Shown here one piece after another: positions 7,504 to 63,157 of a stretch of DNA of 63,157 nt. Position 1 is the first letter of the stretch. The number at the start of each line of letters is the position of its first letter. The notes beneath the pieces are model-generated. The model was not told where the DNA came from. It saw nothing but the letters and a program-made list of their open reading frames with translations, and did not search any database. A program made the position numbers and the translations under genes. Source of the DNA: a virus (lineage: Duplodnaviria; Caudoviricetes); IMG/VR virus record IMGVR_UViG_3300027804_000072, positions 1-63,157 of that record, one strand, 5' to 3'.

Positions 7504-7662
7504 CTACTCCTTGCCTTCTGAGGCGCCACCCGCAAGCCGGGCGGCCGCAAGATTCGTCTCGATGATGTGACGAGCGCAGTAGTTGTCGCGCCAGGTCCCG
7601 GTTGTCCCGATGATGGCGTTCTTCCCGCAGCGCTGGCATTTTCTGTCGTGTGTCTTGCTCAT
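7504..7662 (-). CDS. leaderless small Zn-binding protein
   Basis: MSKTHDRKCQRC..YCARH; ATG 6 nt below the -10 of the degenerate repeat at 7668-7685. Confidence 0.55.
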   Translation of the reverse strand: MSKTHDRKCQRCGKNAIIGTTGTWRDNYCARHIIETNLAAARLAGGASEGKE

Positions 7663-7680
7663 GTTGTAATTATACCTGCT

Positions 7681-7869
7681 TTAGATCTCGTTGGTAGTTG
7701 ATTCTTGGACGAGCGGGTTGAGAAGCGACCGCAGGTCGAGAAAGAAGTCCGCCATCTCACTCGCCGACACGATCGATCGGTTCGACGTCTGATCGAGGGC
7801 CTCATCGATGATGCGCATCGCTTCGATGACCGCGGATGATTCCTGAAGCGAAAGTTGATCCGTATCCAT
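7681..7869 (-). CDS. hypothetical protein
   Basis: ORF whose stop lies within the repeat. Confidence 0.6.
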   Translation of the reverse strand: MDTDQLSLQESSAVIEAMRIIDEALDQTSNRSIVSASEMADFFLDLRSLLNPLVQESTTNEI

Positions 7870-9653: not shown

Positions 9654-9890
9654 CTAGCCCGCATACTCGAGATCCCACTGGCTCTCGAGGAATGACCAAA
9701 GTTCCGGCACAACTCCGTCGCGATCGCGGTAGAACGGGTCGAGTTGACCGCCGCGAATCTCTTCTGCGAGCTGTGGGCGTACCTTGGAGAGTACGTTGAA
9801 CAGCGCCTGTCCGTACCGCCACTCGTGGTAGCGCGCGATCTCTGGGACCGTACGCAGAAACTTCTCGTATGTGATGTTTTCGTTGGTCAT
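9654..9890 (-). CDS. leaderless hypothetical cassette protein
   Basis: WRYGQALFNVL...DPFY; starts 6 nt below the -10. Confidence 0.75.
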   Translation of the reverse strand: MTNENITYEKFLRTVPEIARYHEWRYGQALFNVLSKVRPQLAEEIRGGQLDPFYRDRDGVVPELWSFLESQWDLEYAG

Positions 9891-9908
9891 GTTATCATTA
9901 TACTTTCT

Positions 9909-10100
9909 TTAGATACCTAGTCGGCGTCGGATCTGTGACTTCAATCCGCGTTGTGGGATGTCGCGCAGTATCGCCTCGGCAATGTCCTTGACGATGTCGC
10001 CTCGAGACAGCTCTGGGTTCTCCTCGAGAGCCCAGGCGATCTCTTCCTCGATGTCCGCAAGCACGTCGTCCGCTTTTGCTTCGTGGATGTATTCGCTCAT
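9909..10100 (-). CDS. leaderless hypothetical cassette protein
   Basis: Runs repeat to repeat; stop TAA lies inside the next repeat. Confidence 0.75.
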   Translation of the reverse strand: MSEYIHEAKADDVLADIEEEIAWALEENPELSRGDIVKDIAEAILRDIPQRGLKSQIRRRLGI

Positions 10101-15462: not shown

Positions 15463-15566
15463 TTCCTTGTCCTTTCGTCGTTCCAGCCTCGCTGGCTGGT
15501 AAGTACATTATAACTTCTTTAGAAACCGCTGCCTGCCGGCCCGGTTAGGGCCAGCAGGCAGGCGAC

Positions 15567-15722
15567 TCAGACTGCCAGCCGCTCGAGGGCGAGTCGCTGG
15601 ATCTCGTCGGCGACAGGGCGATCGAAGTCGGTGTCGTCGAATGCGTACATGATCAGCTCGCCCGGCGTCGCGTCTGCGACGACTTGCTTGCACCACTCGA
15701 GGGTTTCTTGGCTGAGGTTCAT
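15567..15722 (-). CDS. hypothetical cassette peptide
   Basis: MNLSQET after SD. Confidence 0.6.
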   Translation of the reverse strand: MNLSQETLEWCKQVVADATPGELIMYAFDDTDFDRPVADEIQRLALERLAV

Positions 15723-15785
15723 TTTGTGTCCTTTCGTTGCTGGTAAGTACATTATAACTTCTTTAGAACGGGCTGGAGCCGCCGG

Positions 15786-15929
15786 TCATCGACCGGCGAC
15801 CCGAACCTCGAACCGGGGATCGTGCTGGCGCTGGGCGACCCAGGCGATGCACTTGCTGCGAGGACCACAGACCACGACCAGGCGGTACTTGCTGTCGTAG
15901 ACCTCGTGCATTCTCGTTGAACCCTTCAT
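15786..15929 (-). CDS. hypothetical cassette peptide
   Basis: MKGSTRMHEV after SD. Confidence 0.5.
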   Translation of the reverse strand: MKGSTRMHEVYDSKYRLVVVCGPRSKCIAWVAQRQHDPRFEVRVAGR

Positions 15930-16897: not shown

Positions 16898-16992
16898 ACT
16901 CTGTCCTTTCGTCGTGTGTAGATACATTATAACTTCTTTAGATCAGTGGAGGAGAGCCCGTCTGCTGCTCGAGACTCTCCCCCAGGCCGGGC

Positions 16993-17277
16993 TCAGCGAC
17001 CGCGCTCTTTTCGGAGGCGCTCGGCGTACGCCTCGGCAGAGGTCGGCGCGTCGATGCCGTTGCGCAGCATCGCGGCGACCGCGCAGGAGACCGCGCCGGA
17101 GTAGTTCCCGCCGGCGCAGTTCATCGTGTACATCGCGTCGCGGCGTGCCCGTACGCGGTGTTCGATCGTCGGCAGCTGCTGAAAGTACGGAGCCGAGTTC
17201 TTCTCGCCGGGGGCGCCGTGGGCCAGCGCCCATTCGAGCCACTCGTCCGAGAGCGGGGTGAGGTCTGTCGTGTTCAT
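16993..17277 (-). CDS. hypothetical cassette protein
   Basis: Repeat + SD + ORF. Confidence 0.7.
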   Translation of the reverse strand: MNTTDLTPLSDEWLEWALAHGAPGEKNSAPYFQQLPTIEHRVRARRDAMYTMNCAGGNYSGAVSCAVAAMLRNGIDAPTSAEAYAERLRKERGR

Positions 17278-17324
17278 CGTGTGTCCTTTCGTCGTGCTTG
17301 TAAGATCATTATAACTTCTTTAGA

Positions 17325-17598
17325 AGCATCAGCCCTACGGTAAGTGCCAGCGGAGGGAGCGACCCTCACTGCTGTGCGGACCCTGGCCGGGATCCGCAGG
17401 ACTTCACATCACCCGCTTACGGATGCGTCGCGAGAGGAGGACGGTCGCTTCGGCGGAGGGAGCCGGATGATCGCCTAGGTCGATCAGAGCCGCTATCGCG
17501 CGTCGGCGGAGCCTTATCTTCGGAGAGGCTTGTGCTGACGGTATGTTCTTCGTCCCAGCAGCTTGCTGGCACTTGCCGCGGGGCTGATGCTCCGTGAC
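17325..17598 (-). ncRNA. candidate structured ncRNA cassette (~270 nt)
   Basis: No SD/ORF; 27-bp terminal inverted repeat (17325-17351 / 17565-17591, 3 differences) encloses several hairpins; directly below promoter repeat 17604. Confidence 0.7.
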
Positions 17599-17622
17599 AA
17601 GATCATTATAACATCTTTAGAT

Positions 17623-17808
17623 TCAGAGCCCGCAGAACTCCCGGAGGAGTTCGGCTTCCCAGCGGGAGAACCCTTCGGCGCAGATCACGGCCTCACACAT
17701 GTCCGAGACCACCTCGTCGTAGACCTCGGCAGGGTACTCCTCGCGGCACTGAGCGAGGATGTCGCTCGCCACTCCCTTGAGGTCAGCCTTTGTGAATCGA
17801 TCTTCCAT
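17623..17808 (-). CDS. cassette protein (paralog of 24529..24702)
   Basis: DILAQCREEY...DEVVSDM..AVI..EG.S...A..LR...GL. Confidence 0.75.
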   Translation of the reverse strand: MEDRFTKADLKGVASDILAQCREEYPAEVYDEVVSDMCEAVICAEGFSRWEAELLREFCGL

Positions 17809-17855
17809 TGTCGTCCTTTCGTTTTGTTGACAAGATCATTATAACATCTTTAGAA

Positions 17856-18044
17856 TCAGCACTCGGCGGCGCTGAGTGCCTTCGCCTTCTCGAGGCGATC
17901 GGCGATGTACTTGATGCTCTGGCTCAGATAGCCGACGGCGTAGTGAGCGGTGAACTCCTCGATCCGCGCGTCCATCTCGCCGCTCGTGATGAAGTCGATG
18001 GCGCGCTTGACCTCGTCCTCGATGTCTCGGATGTGGTGGTTCAT
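17856..18044 (-). CDS. hypothetical cassette protein
   Basis: Repeat + SD + ORF. Confidence 0.7.
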   Translation of the reverse strand: MNHHIRDIEDEVKRAIDFITSGEMDARIEEFTAHYAVGYLSQSIKYIADRLEKAKALSAAEC

Positions 18045-18108
18045 TTGGTGTCCTTTCGTTTTGTTGATAAGATCATTATAACTTCTTTAGATTACCGCTC
18101 CGGCCGGG

Positions 18109-19001: not shown

Positions 19002-19232
19002 TCAGATTCCGTAGGGGAATCCGTAGGTCTCGAAGTAGTAGGTCTCCATCCACTTCAGAGCGCCGGCCTTGGTCTTCTTGGGGCAGCCCCAGTTCATCTC
19101 GCACGCCTTCACGAGGCTGTACCGAGCGGCCTTCATTCCGGTGTTCACCTCGAGGCGGAGCATCGAGATCGCGGAGGCGACTCGCCAGTGCTCGATTCCG
19201 TCGGGGGTGTCGATGATGATTGTTTGAGTCAT
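19002..19232 (-). CDS. hypothetical cassette protein
   Basis: MTQTII after SD. Confidence 0.7.
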   Translation of the reverse strand: MTQTIIIDTPDGIEHWRVASAISMLRLEVNTGMKAARYSLVKACEMNWGCPKKTKAGALKWMETYYFETYGFPYGI

Positions 19233-19657: not shown

Positions 19658-19804
19658 TTAGAAGTCCACCTTGCCGCGACCGCGGCAGGCGTTCTTCCGA
19701 GCCAGCGCCTTCTTGTTCGGCATCGTCGTCGCTCGCAGGCGAGACGTCGCGAATGCGAACTTGTCGGCGTCGTTCCACTTTTGGGTGATCTTGTTCTTCG
19801 TCAT
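19658..19804 (-). CDS. leaderless basic peptide (paralog of 10132..10269)
   Basis: MTKNKITQKWNDADKFAFATSRLRATTMPNKKALARKNACRGRGKVDF; stop within repeat. Confidence 0.7.
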   Translation of the reverse strand: MTKNKITQKWNDADKFAFATSRLRATTMPNKKALARKNACRGRGKVDF

Positions 19805-19836
19805 GTAGTCATTATAACATCTTTAGAATAGCGAGG

Positions 19837-20001
19837 TCAGCAGTCGCTGTCCTCGTATTCGACGATCGCCTTCTCGATGAGATCGAACGCGGCCATCAGA
19901 TTGGCGAACCCGGGAGTGCTCTCGTCGAGATTGCGCAGAACCGCCTCGATCGACGCGGCCGCTCCATAGACCTGCGTCATGCGCTGTTCGGTCAAGTTCA
20001 T
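19837..20001 (-). CDS. hypothetical cassette peptide
   Basis: MNLTEQ after SD. Confidence 0.6.
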   Translation of the reverse strand: MNLTEQRMTQVYGAAASIEAVLRNLDESTPGFANLMAAFDLIEKAIVEYEDSDC

Positions 20002-20050
20002 TGTGTGTCCTTTCGTTGTTGGTTGACGAAGTCATTATAACTTCTTTAGA

Positions 20051-34104: not shown

Positions 34105-34158
34105 CTTGTACTTCTTTCTGTGTTTGGTTCTAGCAATATAACAACTCTAGAACTTGAG

Positions 34159-34230
34159 AGCCGGATGTCAGGATTGAACTGACGACCTACCGCTTACAAG
34201 GCGGTTGCTCTACCGCTGAGCTAATCCGGC
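34159..34230 (-). tRNA. tRNA-Thr(UGU)
   Basis: GCCGGAT acceptor; ACCGC-CTTGTAA-GCGGT; GTTCAAT T-loop. Confidence 0.93.
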
Positions 34231-34322
34231 TAGCGACGACGATGTGGTGCGGATACTTGATTGTGTTCCCGTAGTAGATGCTCAACAAGCGTCCTAGTTT
34301 TTTGGTTCCACATCGTCGCCAG

Positions 34323-34395
34323 CGCCGAGAGCAGGAATCGAACCTGCGACCAAGAGATTAGAAGGCTCTTGCTCTATCCACTGAGCTACCTCGGC
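34323..34395 (-). tRNA. tRNA-Arg(UCU)
   Basis: GCCGAGG acceptor; anticodon loop CTTCTAA; GTTCGAT T-loop. Confidence 0.92.
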
Positions 34396-34402
34396 AATGG
34401 CT

Positions 34403-34606
34403 TTAGTCTTTTTGTATTAGTTCCCGCGCCTCCTGTAGAAACTTCCCATAGAGAAATCTGTTGTCCAGAAGATAACATGAGATGAAACTTTCGCCGGCGG
34501 TCTTCATCTGTTTTCTGATCTCACGGAAGTTCATGAGGTCTGTTGGGTGAGCCTTGATGTACTCGGCTAGCCAGGTCACAGCGCGTTCGTGTGTTGTCTC
34601 CGTCAT
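34403..34606 (-). CDS. hypothetical protein between tRNAs
   Basis: ORF with AAAGGT SD. Confidence 0.55.
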   Translation of the reverse strand: MTETTHERAVTWLAEYIKAHPTDLMNFREIRKQMKTAGESFISCYLLDNRFLYGKFLQEARELIQKD

Positions 34607-34624
34607 TTCTTACCTTTGTCTTGT

Positions 34625-34701
34625 TGGTACCGGGTGCAGGAATTGAACCTGCTCAAGGACTTTATAAGAGTCCCTCCGTCAAACCGTCCGGACCACCCGG
34701 C
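34625..34701 (-). tRNA. tRNA-Ile(UAU)
   Basis: GGACT-CTTATAA-AGTCC; GTTCAAT; encoded ACCA end. Confidence 0.85.
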
Positions 34702-36708: not shown

Positions 36709-38988
36709 ATGCAAAACCACGGACACCGCACGGGAGAGCGGTTTCGGGGCAAAAGAATCGGATACCGAAGAGGATCCTGGATCATTCTCCCGCTAGCGGT
36801 TGTAGCCTGGGTTCTACCTACGGCTCCCGCTCAGGCGAATAGCAATCTACTGACCAACGGCGGCTTTGACGGTTCGACCGGGTGGACGGTACTACAGAAC
36901 GGCGGCTCTGGAGTGCTGTTCAACGGAGCTCTCCGCTTCTCCTACGACACCGGTCTTGTCTCGCAGACCGTGAGTGTTTCCCCTGGAAGAACCCTAAATG
37001 TATCATTTACGGTTGACAACAGCCAGTCTAACCGTATTGGTCCCGGAGATCCGATCTCAGATACCTGGACGGCAACCCTCTCATCAGGGGAAACGGCTTC
37101 ATCCGTCACTAGATCCGTCGCTCACGGCCTCGAGACCTTTAGCCTTTCCATCACCACCCCGGCAGGCTCATCGGACGCCACGTTGACATTTAGCGGCATC
37201 GACAACGGCTACTGGGCGGGTCACTACGGCCCGGTTGTTGACAGTGTAACACTTATTTCTACCCTACCCTCAACTCCCGCCAATAACGGTTGTGGCCCGT
37301 ATCCAGCCATTTCGGTGACCGGGAACACGGGAGGGCCGGTCTGGGGATCTAATCCGTATACCGACGACTCAAACTTTGGAACCGCCGCCGTTCACGCTGG
37401 TCTCATCGCGGTTGGTGAAACGGCGATCATCGAGCCCTACGCCGTCGACAACTACCCAAGCTACTCCGGAAGCGCGGCGAACGGAGTCACGACATACGAC
37501 TGGGGCGGCGCGTGGTGCGGATACTACATCAAGATTCTAGGTGAACCTCTTCCCGGAACTACCACAACGACTACGACAACTCTGCCAAAGGTTCTTGGTG
37601 CTCCAACAAATCTTAGCGTTGAGAACACAGAGAGTGGAGTGCTTATCGACTGGGAAGCGTCACAGAGTGATTCTGGAGTTTCTCCCGAGCGATACGCAGT
37701 TTCATGGAGCACTGGATCAGCGGGTTGGGGAGTCGCAACAGGCAACGTTGGAGACGCAAACGCGCTAAACACACAGATACTTCTTGGCTATCAACTATTC
37801 GAGTCAACGGGAGGTTTGAACACTGAATACACGTTCACCGTTCGTGCCGACAACGACACGCACGGAGTCTACTCACAAGTTTCTCAGAGCGTTACGTTAA
37901 CTATAGACACACCGGAGGTTCCAACAACATGGCCAGAATCGACCAGCACGACCACCTCATCGACAGATGCCCCGACCCCTTCTGTGGATGTTCCTACGAC
38001 AACTGCACCTGTCACTTCGACGGATCCTACACCGACAACGATCTCTGCACCTGCGCCTGTCACGACGACGAGTTCGACATCGACAACGACTGATGCGCCC
38101 GCCGAGGAAACTACACCGCCGGAAACAACCGTGGCTGAGCCCGAGACAACTGACCCGGCACCAGAAACAACAGACCCAGAACCAGATCCAGGACCAGGAG
38201 ACGATGTAACCGAGCTCTCTCCTGAAGAGCTTAGTGACATTGAAGAACCAGAGCAACTCGAGGCTCTCATCGACTCAGGCAACATCGACGCGCTCGACTC
38301 TGAGCAGTTGTTGTCGATCGTTGAAAACGATGCGTTCACCGAGCTTTCAGCAGAGGCGTTTGGTGAAGTTCTCGATGCAGTGTTCGACGAATCTCTTTCC
38401 GATGAAGAGTTTCAAGATGTTTTAGACTCTGTTCTCAGTGCGCCTATCTCAGACGAACAGTTTGATGAACTTGTTGACGCGCTAGGCAGTGACTCCGTCA
38501 CAGATGAGCAGGTACAGGAAGCCGTTGATCAGATCATTGAAAACGGTATCACCGAGGAATTTGCTACGTCCCTCGCGTCAAGTGCCGACATTCTTACCTC
38601 GATCGACGGCGACGCAGCGTCTGAGATCTTTGCCGAGGTTCCGGTGTCTGACCTAACTGACGAAGAAGCAGAGCAGATTGTCGCCGCCGTCCAGGACGCA
38701 AGCGAAGAAGTTCGTGAGTCATTCGAGACCGAGATCAACATCTTTGGCGCCGGAAGCCTTGACACGTATGTTCCGATCGGCTCGGCTGTTGACGTCGGAA
38801 CCCGCCGAGTCGTCATCGCCGCAACGACGGTAGTATCTGTATTGACGGTTGCTTCTCCCCCCTCTTCTCCCGCCCCCTCCTCACCAGGAGGTAGCGGTTC
38901 AGGAAGCGGTGGCCCGTCAGGAAGTGGTGGCGGTACTAGTGCTGAGCCCAGTTCCGAGAGGCGAAGAAGACTTCCCGGAGGCCGCTAA
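36709..38988 (+). CDS. large exported/surface protein: beta-sandwich, LCCL-like, FN3-like, Thr-rich linker, acidic helical region
   Basis: Signal peptide; NLLTNGGF; VWGSNPYTDDSNFGTAAVHAGLI (LCCL); APTNL..W..Y..L..YTFTVRA (FN3). Confidence 0.75.
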   Translation: MQNHGHRTGERFRGKRIGYRRGSWIILPLAVVAWVLPTAPAQANSNLLTNGGFDGSTGWTVLQNGGSGVLFNGALRFSYDTGLVSQTVSVSPGRTLNVSFTVDNSQSNRIGPGDPISDTWTATLSSGETASSVTRSVAHGLETFSLSITTPAGSSDATLTFSGIDNGYWAGHYGPVVDSVTLISTLPSTPANNGCGPYPAISVTGNTGGPVWGSNPYTDDSNFGTAAVHAGLIAVGETAIIEPYAVDNYPSYSGSAANGVTTYDWGGAWCGYYIKILGEPLPGTTTTTTTTLPKVLGAPTNLSVENTESGVLIDWEASQSDSGVSPERYAVSWSTGSAGWGVATGNVGDANALNTQILLGYQLFESTGGLNTEYTFTVRADNDTHGVYSQVSQSVTLTIDTPEVPTTWPESTSTTTSSTDAPTPSVDVPTTTAPVTSTDPTPTTISAPAPVTTTSSTSTTTDAPAEETTPPETTVAEPETTDPAPETTDPEPDPGPGDDVTELSPEELSDIEEPEQLEALIDSGNIDALDSEQLLSIVENDAFTELSAEAFGEVLDAVFDESLSDEEFQDVLDSVLSAPISDEQFDELVDALGSDSVTDEQVQEAVDQIIENGITEEFATSLASSADILTSIDGDAASEIFAEVPVSDLTDEEAEQIVAAVQDASEEVRESFETEINIFGAGSLDTYVPIGSAVDVGTRRVVIAATTVVSVLTVASPPSSPAPSSPGGSGSGSGGPSGSGGGTSAEPSSERRRRLPGGR

Positions 38989-60202: not shown

Positions 60203-63157
60203 ATGTCATTCAAACTATTTAATCTATTGCGTGCTCGCTATTTCAATAGTGAAAGCAACGCCGCGATCGAGGTTGGTATCGCAGGCGAGCCAAACCCTCG
60301 GCTAGCTGTTGACGCCGGCGGCCGTATTACTTGGGGAGATGGCACCAACGCAACAGACACTAATCTCTATCGAGATTCTGCAAACACGCTTAAGACCGAC
60401 GATACACTTAAGGTTCCCGCTCTCTACGTAGACAGTATTGAGGTAGACACGACAGGTGCCGCTACTGGAAATACTTTTGTCTACAATGGAACAAAATTTG
60501 CGCCAGGGACAGCTACCGTCAACATCCCAGGTGGCGAGCCGATCGGACACACGGACAAAACACAGAGTGTCATTTCCTTTGATGAAGGCAACCGTAGATT
60601 TTCTATTGCCCCAGTATCTGGGTCATTCGAAGTCTGGTGTAAGGGCGTCAAGTTTACAAAAACCACCACGGAAACAATAGACATTCCCGACACCAGTGGT
60701 CTTTACTATATTCACTATGACAATACTGGCGAACTTTCCTACAGCACGACGTTTTATGATTGGGAAAACGACACGCCTACCGCATATGTTTATTGGAACG
60801 AAGTCGATAACAAAGCATATTTCTTTGCGGATGAACGTCATGGAATTGTTCTTGACTGGGCAACACATGAGTATCTTCATAGAACCCGTGGTGCCGCAAT
60901 CGCCAATGGATTTGGTGCCAACAACTACACCACGACCGGCGACGGTTCACTAGATGCTCATGCAAAGATTGATATTGCCGACGGAACCTTCTTTGATGAA
61001 GACCTACAGGTAGATATCACGCACTCTGCATCCCCAACCGCGAATACATGGCAGCAGCGGCTACAGGGTGGCGCTTACATCCCAGTTTTTTATCGCCTCA
61101 ATAATCACTGGACAACGGACACAGCGACGCAGTTCCCAATGAAACAGGGGACATCTCTCGTTCAATACAACCGAAACACCGCGGGAACCTGGTCGACAAC
61201 CGATATCAGTAACAACAAATTCGGCATCACATGGATTACTGCCACAAATAATCTTGGTAACCCGATCATAGGTGTGCTGGGCCAGGCCGAATACAACAAT
61301 CAAGGTGAAGCCGAAGCGATCACATGGGAGCAGATGGACCTTGGTGGATTTCCTGTTTTTGAGTTTAGACCTCTCTATAAGATCATTTACCAAACAGCCA
61401 ACGCTTATGCGAATACACCAAATGCTCGCATTATCTCGGTTGTCGATAAGCGAGTATCTATTCCTCTTGGTGGTGTTCCTGCAACACCAGTCTCTGACCA
61501 CGGCTCACTCACCGGTCTTTCTGACGACGATCACACACAATATCTACTCGCCGATGGCACCCGCAACGCTTCGTCACTGAACGTGACCGGCGCATTGTCG
61601 TCATCAACTCTTACAGTTGACAGCATCGAGATCGACACGACGGGCGCTACAACTGATCAGGCGCTTGTTTTCAATGGGACAAAGTTTGCGCCATCGACTG
61701 CTGTGGGACCGCAAGGTGCTCAGGGGGCGCAAGGGCCACAGGGCGCTACCGGCCCGCAAGGAGCTACCGGCGCTCAGGGTGCTACCGGCCCACAAGGCGC
61801 CACTGGGCCACAAGGACCACAAGGTGACGTCGGCGCTCAAGGAGCGCAAGGTCCGCAAGGCGCAACTGGCGCTCAGGGAGCAACAGGTGCTCAAGGCGCT
61901 ACAGGAGCACAAGGTCCGCAAGGTGACACAGGCGCACAGGGCCCGCAGGGAGACACTGGACCTCAAGGCGCGACTGGTCCTCAAGGTGCGCAGGGCGCTC
62001 AGGGCGCTACAGGAGCAACTGGTAGTCAAGGCCCGCAGGGTTCAATCGGACCACAAGGAGATACCGGTCCGCAGGGTTCAACGGGTCCACAAGGTCCGCA
62101 AGGTGCAACAGAAGCTCAGGGTGCAACCGGTGCGCAGGGTGCCACGGGCGCTCAAGGTGCCCAGGGCCCGCAGGGAGACACTGGACCTCAAGGTCCGCAG
62201 GGTGATATCGGGGCGCAGGGTGCCACCGGAGCACAGGGCGCGACGGGTGCTACCGGAGCACAGGGTGCGCAGGGTGCTACCGGCCCGCAAGGTGATGTTG
62301 GTCCGCAAGGTGCAACAGGAGCACAGGGGCCGCAAGGTGCTGTCGGTCCACAGGGAGCAACTGGAGCACAAGGCGCGCAAGGCGCAACAGGGGCACAGGG
62401 GCCGCAAGGCGATGTTGGTCCACAAGGAGCAACTGGAGCAACTGGGGCACAAGGTGCACAGGGGCCGCAAGGTGACACTGGACCACAAGGCCCACAAGGA
62501 GCACAAGGTGCAACTGGAGCGCAAGGTGCCACGGGTGCTCAAGGAGCAGCAGGAGCGCAAGGTGCTCAAGGCGCACAAGGAAACTTTGGCGGAGTCACAT
62601 TTGACTACACCTTTGATTCCAATACCGACCAGACAGACCCCGGCACTGGAAAACTTAAGTTTGACAATGCGTCGCTAAACTTATCAACAGAGCTCGTCAT
62701 CGACGACGTAGACGACAACTCAACAGACATTCAATCGTATCTGCGCACAATTGATGATTCAACAAGCGCCATCAAGGGACACTTTAGGGTCTCCAAGAAA
62801 ACAGATTCATCAGCATTTGCACTCTTTACAGTTTCATCGGTAGTCGAGGAAACTGGATTTTTCAGAGTTATTTCGTCTTATGTGACAGGGTCTAGTGCGA
62901 CTCCGTTCGCTAACAACGATGACGTGATCATTACCTTTGCACGCACTGGCGATGTTGGTGCGCAAGGTGCGCAAGGAGCAACTGGAGCGCAAGGTGCCAC
63001 TGGTGCTCAAGGTGCTACGGGTGCGCAGGGTCCGCAAGGTGATGTTGGCACTACAGGAGCGCAAGGACCGCAAGGCGCGACGGGACCGCAAGGCGCAACC
63101 GGTGCGCAGGGTGCAACTGGAGCAACTGGGGCACAAGGTGCACAGGGGCCGCAAGGT
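60203..63157 (+). CDS. collagen-like tail fibre protein (partial, runs off the window)
   Basis: ATG at 60203 (MSFKLFN) is in frame with Gly-X-Y (GPQ/GAQ/GAT) tracts at ~61706-62580 and ~62948-end; absent from the ORF track because no stop is reached. Confidence 0.85.

Follow-up and report, generated by a model that had tools for sequence, protein, structure and literature searches.

What does an early promoter of a phage transcribe when no gene follows it? The question arises at positions 17325 to 17598 of a 63,157-nucleotide (nt) stretch of viral DNA (IMG/VR record IMGVR_UViG_3300027804_000072; this whole stretch is called the window below), where an earlier note, made from the letters alone, had proposed that a cassette with a structured non-coding RNA stands in place of a protein gene. 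The analysis described here supports that proposal. The interval very probably encodes a structured RNA gene on the minus strand, and homologues in other phages share its architecture and two short invariant motifs.

The source contig, a 63-kb viral sequence estimated to be 47% complete, encodes among other proteins a T4-type large terminase, a primase-polymerase/D5 helicase and a class II ribonucleotide reductase. By terminase, the nearest named record is Actinomycetia phage DSL-LC01 (83.5% identity), followed by Microbacterium, Gordonia and Arthrobacter phages, and because of these neighbors the hosts are probably high-GC actinobacteria. Lake and freshwater metagenomes from 17 studies contain the phage sequence. 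The RNA cassette lies within an early-gene array in which the promoter repeat AGATCATTATAAC recurs nearly once per small minus-strand gene (37 matches in the window, from 8800 to 30365, where 0.54 are expected), and a promoter-per-gene array is also present in DSL-LC01. The copy at 17600-17612 on the minus strand stands directly upstream of the RNA and ends ~8 nt before its closing helix; from this spacing alone, transcription is predicted to start near 17598. Whereas the other cassettes run on as ...ACGAAAGGAC...ATG, with early genes of the window using a GAAAGGAC-type Shine-Dalgarno (SD) sequence, neither an SD nor a credible open reading frame (ORF) follows the promoter here, as the earlier note had observed. 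The promoter of the next cassette starts ~10 nt past the helix, and terminator-like sites in the early region are fewer than chance predicts (7 found, 15.5 expected).

Homologues and covariation

The inverted repeat that was said to close the interval is present at 17325-17351 and 17565-17591, with two 27-nt arms that are 89% complementary and 213 nt between them. When a 286-nt stretch was folded in both directions, as had been suggested, each strand proved more stable than all of its 200 shuffles (minus strand, -133.7 kcal/mol, z -4.67; plus strand, -143 kcal/mol, z -4.09). Relatives were found with covariance models. The first model (R1), built from the window sequence alone and run over the whole records of 40 terminase relatives, detected homologues of 245-253 nt in three of these contigs, two of which carry two copies each, and the elements have short invariant motifs in common with the window. 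Further variants then came from scanning viral and metagenome collections for these motifs. A second model (R2) was built from eight members with the window left out and its structure checked by hand. It recognizes the window RNA with 50.7 bits (E 7.9e-14), and all helices and both motifs of the family are present there. Of 50 terminase-related records, 6 contain members detected by R2; among these members are second copies and two relatives of 288-289 nt that belong to the window's own type. R2 gave 24 further hits among 63 loci from two looser motif scans.

In total, the family comprises 27 distinct sequences of 186-289 nt from 30 viral contigs, at least 11 of which carry two diverged copies 1.6-5.5 kb apart. 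The check proposed in the earlier note, a homologue search followed by an analysis of covariation, came out empty for BLASTn and gave these 27 homologues with covariance models and motif scans. Neither blastn of the element (361 nt, distant mode) nor megablast of 8 kb against 50,697 phage records found a match, local blastn (word size 7) and nhmmer against bases 1-46000 of DSL-LC01 gave nothing significant, and R2 had no match over the whole DSL-LC01 record. A terminase like that of the window was present in none of the 18 newly found contigs tested, one of which is a complete 148-kb genome with terminal repeats whose terminase is at most 42.5% identical to any phage record searched; the RNA family therefore crosses phage lineages. 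Scanning cellular genomes for the motif pattern yielded six stretches, among which R2 found at best an 11.6-bit fragment, and no cellular copy. Among 32 metagenome stretches from the motif scan, 12 are members (seven by R2, five by sequence identity); the remaining 20 appear to be chance matches in coding sequence, as judged by reading them and not by R2.

All members have the same order of elements. A terminal helix, P1, is followed by a short linker, the first P2 strand, a variable stem region and the copies of motif M1; then come an internal hairpin, motif M3 in some types, the copies of motif M2 and a hairpin with a CCC...GGG tip; the 3' part consists of the P2 return strand, a 5-bp (base-pair) hairpin and the P1 return strand. 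P1, P2 and the short 3' hairpin thus form a three-way junction throughout the family. P1 is a nearly perfect duplex of 20-31 bp in every member, and its sequence is wholly different among the A, I/J, B, C, E and short types, yet complementary in each, which is visible by eye. Across 22 distinct sequences, 53 of the 54 modelled pairs change on both sides (43 of 54 in a set of 15 sequences), and 89.1% of cells are paired, compared with 40.5-46.3% for slid partners and 55.9% for shuffles, with none of 500 shuffles reaching the observed values; these figures were counted on alignments fitted by the model, which favors the model and makes them somewhat inflated. Pairing is weaker in the inner stems (65-76% of cells). 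The coordinates of these parts in the window RNA, which is family member A, are given in Table 1.

Table 1. Positions of the predicted RNA, its parts and the adjoining promoters in the window
Feature	Positions	Strand	Evidence or remark
Predicted non-coding RNA, ~275 nt, family member A	17322-17598	minus	R1 self-score 360 bits; R2 50.7 bits
Early promoter of the RNA itself	17600-17622	minus	Extended -10 TGTTATAAT; TATAAT at 17610-17605; TCTAAAG before it
P1 terminal helix, 5' arm	17565-17593	minus	P1 covaries at 23/23 modelled pairs
P2, 5' strand GCUGCUG	17556-17562	minus	Partner 17368-17374; covaries at 6/6 pairs
Motif M1, GAUAAGGCUCC at 17508-17518	17508-17531	minus	AGGCU/AGCCU pairing with AAGCCUCU at 17524-17531; AUAAGGCUC in 27/27 members
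M1-like motif GCGAUAGCGGCUCU	17486-17499	minus	Sequence, alignment
Internal hairpin GAUCGACCUAGGCGAUC	17469-17485	minus	CGACGACCAUGGCGUCG at the equivalent place in members I and J
Motif M3, GGCUCCCUCCGCC	17452-17464	minus	UCCCUCC in 12/27 members
Motif M2, GACCGUCCUCCUCU	17433-17446	minus	Core CCGUCCUC in 27/27 members
Degenerate second M2 copy, GCAUCCGUAAGCGGGUG	17410-17426	minus	Alignments
Hairpin with CCC...GGG tip, UGCGGAUCCCGGCCAGGGUCCGCA	17375-17398	minus	Corresponds to CCCGACGGG in B-type members; covaries at 3/3 pairs
P2, 3' strand CAGCAGU	17368-17374	minus	Partner 17556-17562
3' hairpin of the three-way junction, GAGGG-UCGCU-CCCUC	17353-17367	minus	Covaries at 5/5 pairs; 93.5% of cells paired
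P1 terminal helix, 3' arm	17323-17351	minus	Stops ~10 nt short of the -10 of the next cassette
Promoter of the next cassette (94-amino-acid gene, 16993-17277)	17303-17320	minus	Terminator-free gap after the RNA

Five hairpins had been listed inside the inverted repeat, and four of them, GAGGG/CCCTC (17353-67), TGCGGA/TCCGCA (17375-98), TGATCG/CGATCA (17468-86) and AGCCT/AGGCT (17510-30), either form part of the family consensus or recur in the closest relatives. The fifth, TGCTG/CAGCA at 17533-60, is not supported, as its CAGCAGC segment (17556-62) pairs instead over a long range with 17368-74 to form P2. As a separate observation, the 5' arm of P1 forms a local hairpin of 5-7 bp in most members, although only weakly in the window (17565-17593). 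The loop of this hairpin is often UNCG or GNRA (UUCG, UACG, GCAA, GAAA), its stem covaries between subfamilies, and it could be an alternative or co-transcriptional fold that competes with P1.

The inverted repeat might instead matter as DNA, either as the ends of a miniature mobile element or as part of a replication or packaging site with iteron-like repeats. The 27-bp terminal repeat would suit such an element, as would the direct repeats of M1 and M2 with their period of 19-20 nt and the occurrence of two copies per genome in unrelated phage lineages. Mobile elements keep the sequence of their terminal repeats, however, whereas the arms here differ wholly between members while staying complementary, with G·U intermediates. 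There is no target-site duplication at 17321/17599, the orientation and the distance to the promoter are fixed, and the cellular genomes scanned hold no copy. This DNA-level reading, already disfavored, is very unlikely, and the suggestion of a captured small mobile element finds no support: the terminal arms covary, they lack the duplication, and the element stands in one orientation just behind a promoter. Examined as a miniature inverted-repeat element, the interval did not show the properties of one.

The earlier note did not recognize the RNA, and no family matched when covariance models were run. Rfam 15 (4227 models) finds only two transfer RNAs (tRNAs) in the whole window at gathering thresholds, a single 10.9-bit psbNH fragment in window positions 17200-17700 at E values up to 10, and no match in six loci with other members at E up to 0.1. 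The models tested include those for 6C, 6S, Y RNA-like, transfer-messenger RNA (tmRNA), RNase P, group I and II introns, ToxI, GOLLD, ROOL and HEARO. In a search for tRNA and tmRNA genes, ARAGORN called just three tRNA genes in the window (34158-34701, minus strand: Thr-TGT, Arg-TCT and Ile-TAT) and none in the six other-member loci. Nor does the locus resemble a retron msr-msd: inverted repeats are present, but no reverse transcriptase adjoins them (this protein family was not searched for across the window), and the minus-strand ORFs within ~2 kb, all of at most 105 amino acids (aa), leave no room for one. No paper in the literature collection searched describes the RNA or contains its motifs, although supplementary motif tables of comparative RNA surveys could bear on its novelty. 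By these comparisons the RNA represents a new, well-supported family within a known kind, the phage-encoded structured non-coding RNAs. Like GOLLD, ROOL and HEARO, it is a structured RNA that emerged from comparative analysis and is enriched in phages and environmental sequences, including those from lakes; unlike it, those RNAs are ~300-800 nt long with unrelated architectures, and none of them matched in the Rfam searches. With a seed alignment, a consensus fold and two invariant motifs, this well-defined class is suited both to Rfam and to experiment.

Strand and coding potential

Two C(UUCG)G tetraloops on the plus strand, opposite to the promoter, had left the functional strand ambiguous. 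Both sequences are present in the window, but they are not kept in its nearest homologues: members I and J have GGCACG in place of the sense CCGAAG, and the second tetraloop site cannot be aligned. Three kinds of evidence now settle the question for the minus (promoter) strand. First, a -10 hexamer (at least 5 of 6 positions matching) ends 0-9 nt upstream on the same strand in all 12 window-lineage members, and a T-rich tract resembling an intrinsic terminator follows P1 in 10 of 11 short-type members. Second, the modelled helices contain 66 G·U cells and 31 A·C cells. Third, when contigs from four lake metagenome studies were compared over 16900-18100, the sole variant inside the RNA proved to be 17345 T>C (A to G in the RNA), which lies in P1 and changes an A-U pair to G·U in a minus-strand RNA, whereas it would create a C-A mismatch in a plus-strand RNA. 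The functional RNA is, judging from these comparisons, the minus strand.

Could the cassette nevertheless encode a small protein from a leaderless or non-canonical start? Related phages are known to have leaderless genes with the ATG 6-7 nt after the -10, and leaderless coding was therefore checked in the RNA family. An ATG does stand just after the -10 in four or five members (including B, D, G and E2), and the window cassette contains on its minus strand a 51-aa ORF with a GTG start, besides which there is only a 30-aa ORF that starts inside the -10 box. However, B2, E and E3 carry ATA at this site, and no ATG stands there in A, C, H, I and J. A small protein-coding gene would be expected to keep its frame and start codon across homologues; the ORFs of 12 members agree in neither frame, start nor length, and the longest ORFs vary in frame, place and strand. 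The motifs are conserved as nucleotides across frames, with the two M2 copies lying in different reading frames, and the helices carry compensatory substitutions. A small protein, already disfavored on these grounds, is extremely improbable, and the cassette is best taken as a non-coding RNA gene with no conserved ORF. The early region of a phage is usually annotated as a row of very small proteins without a known role; one cassette of the present array is an RNA gene with strong comparative support, and its fold is conserved across phages that have no terminase in common.

Displayed motifs and possible functions

M1 can be written (G)AUAAGGCUC(U) and occurs in 1-3 copies, the first of which is often in a hairpin loop, although in the window type it is paired via AGGCU/AGCCU. 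M2, CCG(U/C)CCUC, is likewise present in 1-3 copies, the first usually being AUCCGUCCUCCUCU. Both motifs, as a rule in two copies each, belong to the distal domain, which in some types also contains M3 (UCCCUCC). AUAAGGCUC and CCGUCCUC are found in 27 of 27 members, with AUAAGGCUC always upstream of CCGUCCUC, a count that holds partly by construction because 15 of the 27 came from scans that required both motifs. All 12 window-lineage members carry the two motifs; of these, A, B, C and E first came to light through a covariance model alone and H, I and J through a model only, whereas D, B2, E2, E3 and G were first found by scans requiring GGCTCT and the CCGTCCTCCTCT motif. In the rest of the window, no enrichment of either motif is seen. 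RNAalifold suggested pairing between M1 and M2, but by our reading of the alignment the changes of E-type members in M1a and M2b do not compensate each other, and this pairing was rejected. Because the invariant motifs lack covarying partners, they are best read as recognition sites that may be displayed on a stable scaffold.

The explanation that we favor as a whole, and hold with slightly more confidence than doubt, is a stable structured RNA, transcribed from its own promoter, that acts in trans through displayed motifs. Taken by itself, the claim that the RNA is a trans-acting display of motifs seems to us evenly balanced. P1 would first confer stability on the RNA. In the window lineage, which has no terminator after the RNA, a double-strand-specific RNase, probably RNase III, would probably act on P1 and so excise the RNA from read-through transcripts; in other lineages, P1 and the U-tract behind it would serve as a terminator. 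Since the early array has few terminators, a 27-bp helix that joins the ends would be an obvious way to define and protect a discrete RNA. The RNA is not a leader of the next gene, because in the window lineage it is followed by a full promoter and in the other lineages by a tract that resembles a terminator. The mature RNA would then work in trans and present its motifs to a partner, either G-rich mRNA regions, by analogy with the C-rich loops of the actinobacterial 6C small RNA (sRNA), or, equally possibly, a protein that the RNA titrates. Any one named partner is doubtful at best.

Several points weigh against this reading, among them the inflation of the covariation figures and the partial circularity of the motif count described above. 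No RNA run is among the sequencing runs that carry the sequence, and the transcript, its ends and its stability remain predictions. Of 50 terminase relatives, 44 lack the family, one of them being the complete metagenome-assembled genome DSL-LC01, and the RNA is therefore dispensable for this type of phage. In the window, which is half a genome, sequences complementary to M1 and M2 show no enrichment (14 found and 12.7 expected; 7 found and 7.1 expected), and thermodynamic folding gives the motifs moderate accessibility, with unpaired probabilities of 0.3-0.7. Low variation in the RNA among the lake contigs is not RNA-specific evidence of constraint, as the 61-aa gene has no variant places at all (10 lie in or near the 94-aa gene and 22 in the 62-aa gene). 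Similarly, the flanking 94-aa and 61-aa proteins each led to a single near-identical contig whose RNA is identical over 281 columns, and this identity is weak evidence of constraint because it sits in a block of ~500 nt with one difference that also spans the 61-aa gene.

The same promoter and the same helix lend themselves to readings without a trans-acting product. If P1 were only an RNase III site, the RNA would be an element for processing or stability with no function of its own. The near-perfect duplex in every member and the lack of terminators in the window's early array are consistent with this, and shorter hairpins between cassettes match only the P1 part of R1 (L006, 32792-32858; window, 15771-15811). 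Such an element would have no need of its own promoter, of a conserved interior of 150-230 nt, of invariant motifs or of a covarying three-way junction, and its spread between phages with unrelated terminases would be unexpected; we consider it improbable. T7 early genes are separated by RNase III sites, and HK022 put RNAs are promoter-proximal. The phage RNA shares with both a place in an early transcription unit, with the former a long duplex and with the latter a structured RNA close to the promoter, but T7 RNase III sites and put are ~60-70 nt long and have no conserved interior that bears motifs.

HK022 put RNA and the lambda nut sites are also the models for a cis-acting element, in which the nascent RNA would make its own polymerase resistant to termination or pausing over the downstream early cassettes. 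The promoter directly upstream, the same-strand genes that follow without a terminator in the window lineage and the frequent occurrence of two copies at separate points of the early array all suit such an element, and GCUCU in M1 resembles the boxA core. On the other hand, every downstream cassette has its own promoter, and because intrinsic terminators are fewer than chance predicts, there is little termination for a cis element to overcome. The T-rich, terminator-like tract after the short-type RNAs fits a stand-alone RNA, and an antiterminator in cis needs no helix between its 5' and 3' ends. We consider an action in cis unlikely.

The pyrimidine-rich M2 motif raises another possibility. 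In the window it reads GACCGUCCUCCUCU, and CCG(U/C)CCUCCU is present in 15 of 27 members, the window included, whereas the other 12 have CCUCUUC or CCUCGCU. CCUCCU belongs to the 3' tail of 16S ribosomal RNA (rRNA), and as an anti-SD mimic the RNA might soak up SD sequences or a factor that binds the tail, which could shift translation to phage messages that are leaderless or have a GAAAGGAC-type SD. Both classes of message are known here, the latter in the window's early genes and the former as leaderless cassettes in related phages. Because CCUCCU is kept in only 15 of the 27 members this reading is weakened; the invariant core is CCGUCCUC and not the anti-SD, M1 is left unexplained, and a single RNA that titrates cellular SDs would face unfavorable stoichiometry. 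Actinobacterial ribosomes are also reported to lack ribosomal protein bS21. A precedent for such mimicry is OLE RNA, in which a CCUCCU anti-SD mimic in P6 binds bS21 (PMC12054373). Like OLE, the phage RNA is a structured non-coding RNA with the CCUCCU of the 16S tail, here inside M2; OLE is ~600 nt long and cellular, occurs in Bacillota and has its mimic inside a helix, and the phage CCUCCU is not universal, has no proven partner strand and shows no similarity to OLE by sequence or model. We regard the anti-SD mimic as a poor candidate overall.

Two other known kinds of RNA can be compared with the favored trans-acting RNA. CsrB and RsmZ are protein-sponge RNAs that carry many GGA loops for CsrA. 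They resemble the phage RNA in having short motifs repeated on a structured scaffold and a promoter of their own, but the phage RNA has only 2-3 copies each of two different motifs, and a 76-aa phage protein that tends to co-occur with it is a candidate partner. The 6C sRNA is likewise a stand-alone structured RNA that exposes C-rich, G-poor segments, in high-GC actinobacteria, which are the probable hosts here. The C-rich segments of 6C pair with G-rich mRNA regions without a chaperone (PMC6486639). The phage-encoded RNA differs from 6C in being 2-4 times longer, in its terminal helix and three-way junction, and in a second invariant motif that contains purines (AUAAGGCUC); no Rfam hit to 6C was obtained.

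A bolder form of the trans-acting reading, which we offer as speculation, would make the family a new class of phage host-takeover RNA: a compact display of motifs, exchanged between unrelated large actinophage lineages and usually present as two diverged paralogues. Such an RNA would reprogram the host, either by capture of an essential RNA-binding activity or by hiding ribosome-binding sites, with a factor that reads the 16S 3' tail, the main endoribonuclease or Rho as candidate targets. If this is true, an RNA does a job that other phages give to early proteins. Host takeover by large actinophages is poorly understood, and an early RNA with fixed single-stranded motifs, if abundant, would provide a handle for pulling down its partner.

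Neighboring genes and other cassettes

The 76-aa protein (19002-19232, minus strand) is encoded in all six RNA-positive terminase relatives and in 6 of the 44 RNA-negative ones, and also in two of five genomes of an unrelated RNA-bearing lineage. Its homologues are all unnamed. An AlphaFold model of the protein has three helices (predicted local distance difference test score, 87) and no match in the PDB at E 0.001 or better. The distribution makes it a candidate partner of the RNA. A 47-aa neighbor was not found in the other RNA-bearing lineage, and searches of the neighboring proteins against PHROGs and Pfam gave no informative function.

Other cassettes without ORFs occur in these arrays. 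The C-type and E-type RNA copies are preceded by another ORF-less unit of ~85 nt with its own -10 (L140, ~2560-2680; L100, upstream of 4808; also L153, L156 and L158). It has the hairpins CCUUCC-GAUUAU-GGAAGG and CCCUGG...CCAGGG, enclosed by GUUGG/CCAAC, and it gave no ARAGORN tRNA call and no Rfam match. In L191 (G005:22000-40000), an RNA-negative terminase relative, ORF-less structured cassettes at 7545-7749 and 9793-9942 flank the copy of the 76-aa gene; one of them is 149 nt long, closed by a 17-bp helix, with z -3.2. The array of L191 also holds leaderless genes, with the ATG 6-7 nt after the -10. These cassettes are unrelated to the present RNA. The RNA gene described here shows that ORF-less cassettes in such arrays deserve to be screened as RNA genes. 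The short GC-rich hairpins between cassettes mentioned above, with a further one at 15524-15570 of the window, match only the P1 part of R1, with 8-16 bits, and may simply serve to process or terminate transcripts of the early array.

Whole cassettes at 19800-20050 and 15520-15800 are present or absent between the window and a twin contig that is 95-97% identical (L004), and it seems that early genes come and go as single cassettes. On the plus strand, several promoter repeats also resemble near-consensus TTGACA-N18-TAGAAT promoters, for example at 17827-17856, and antisense transcription across the early array is possible. Elsewhere in the window, an open-ended protein of 985 aa with collagen triple-helix repeats (60203-63157) and a 759-aa protein with an LCCL domain (36709-38988) are probably tail-fibre or adhesion proteins.

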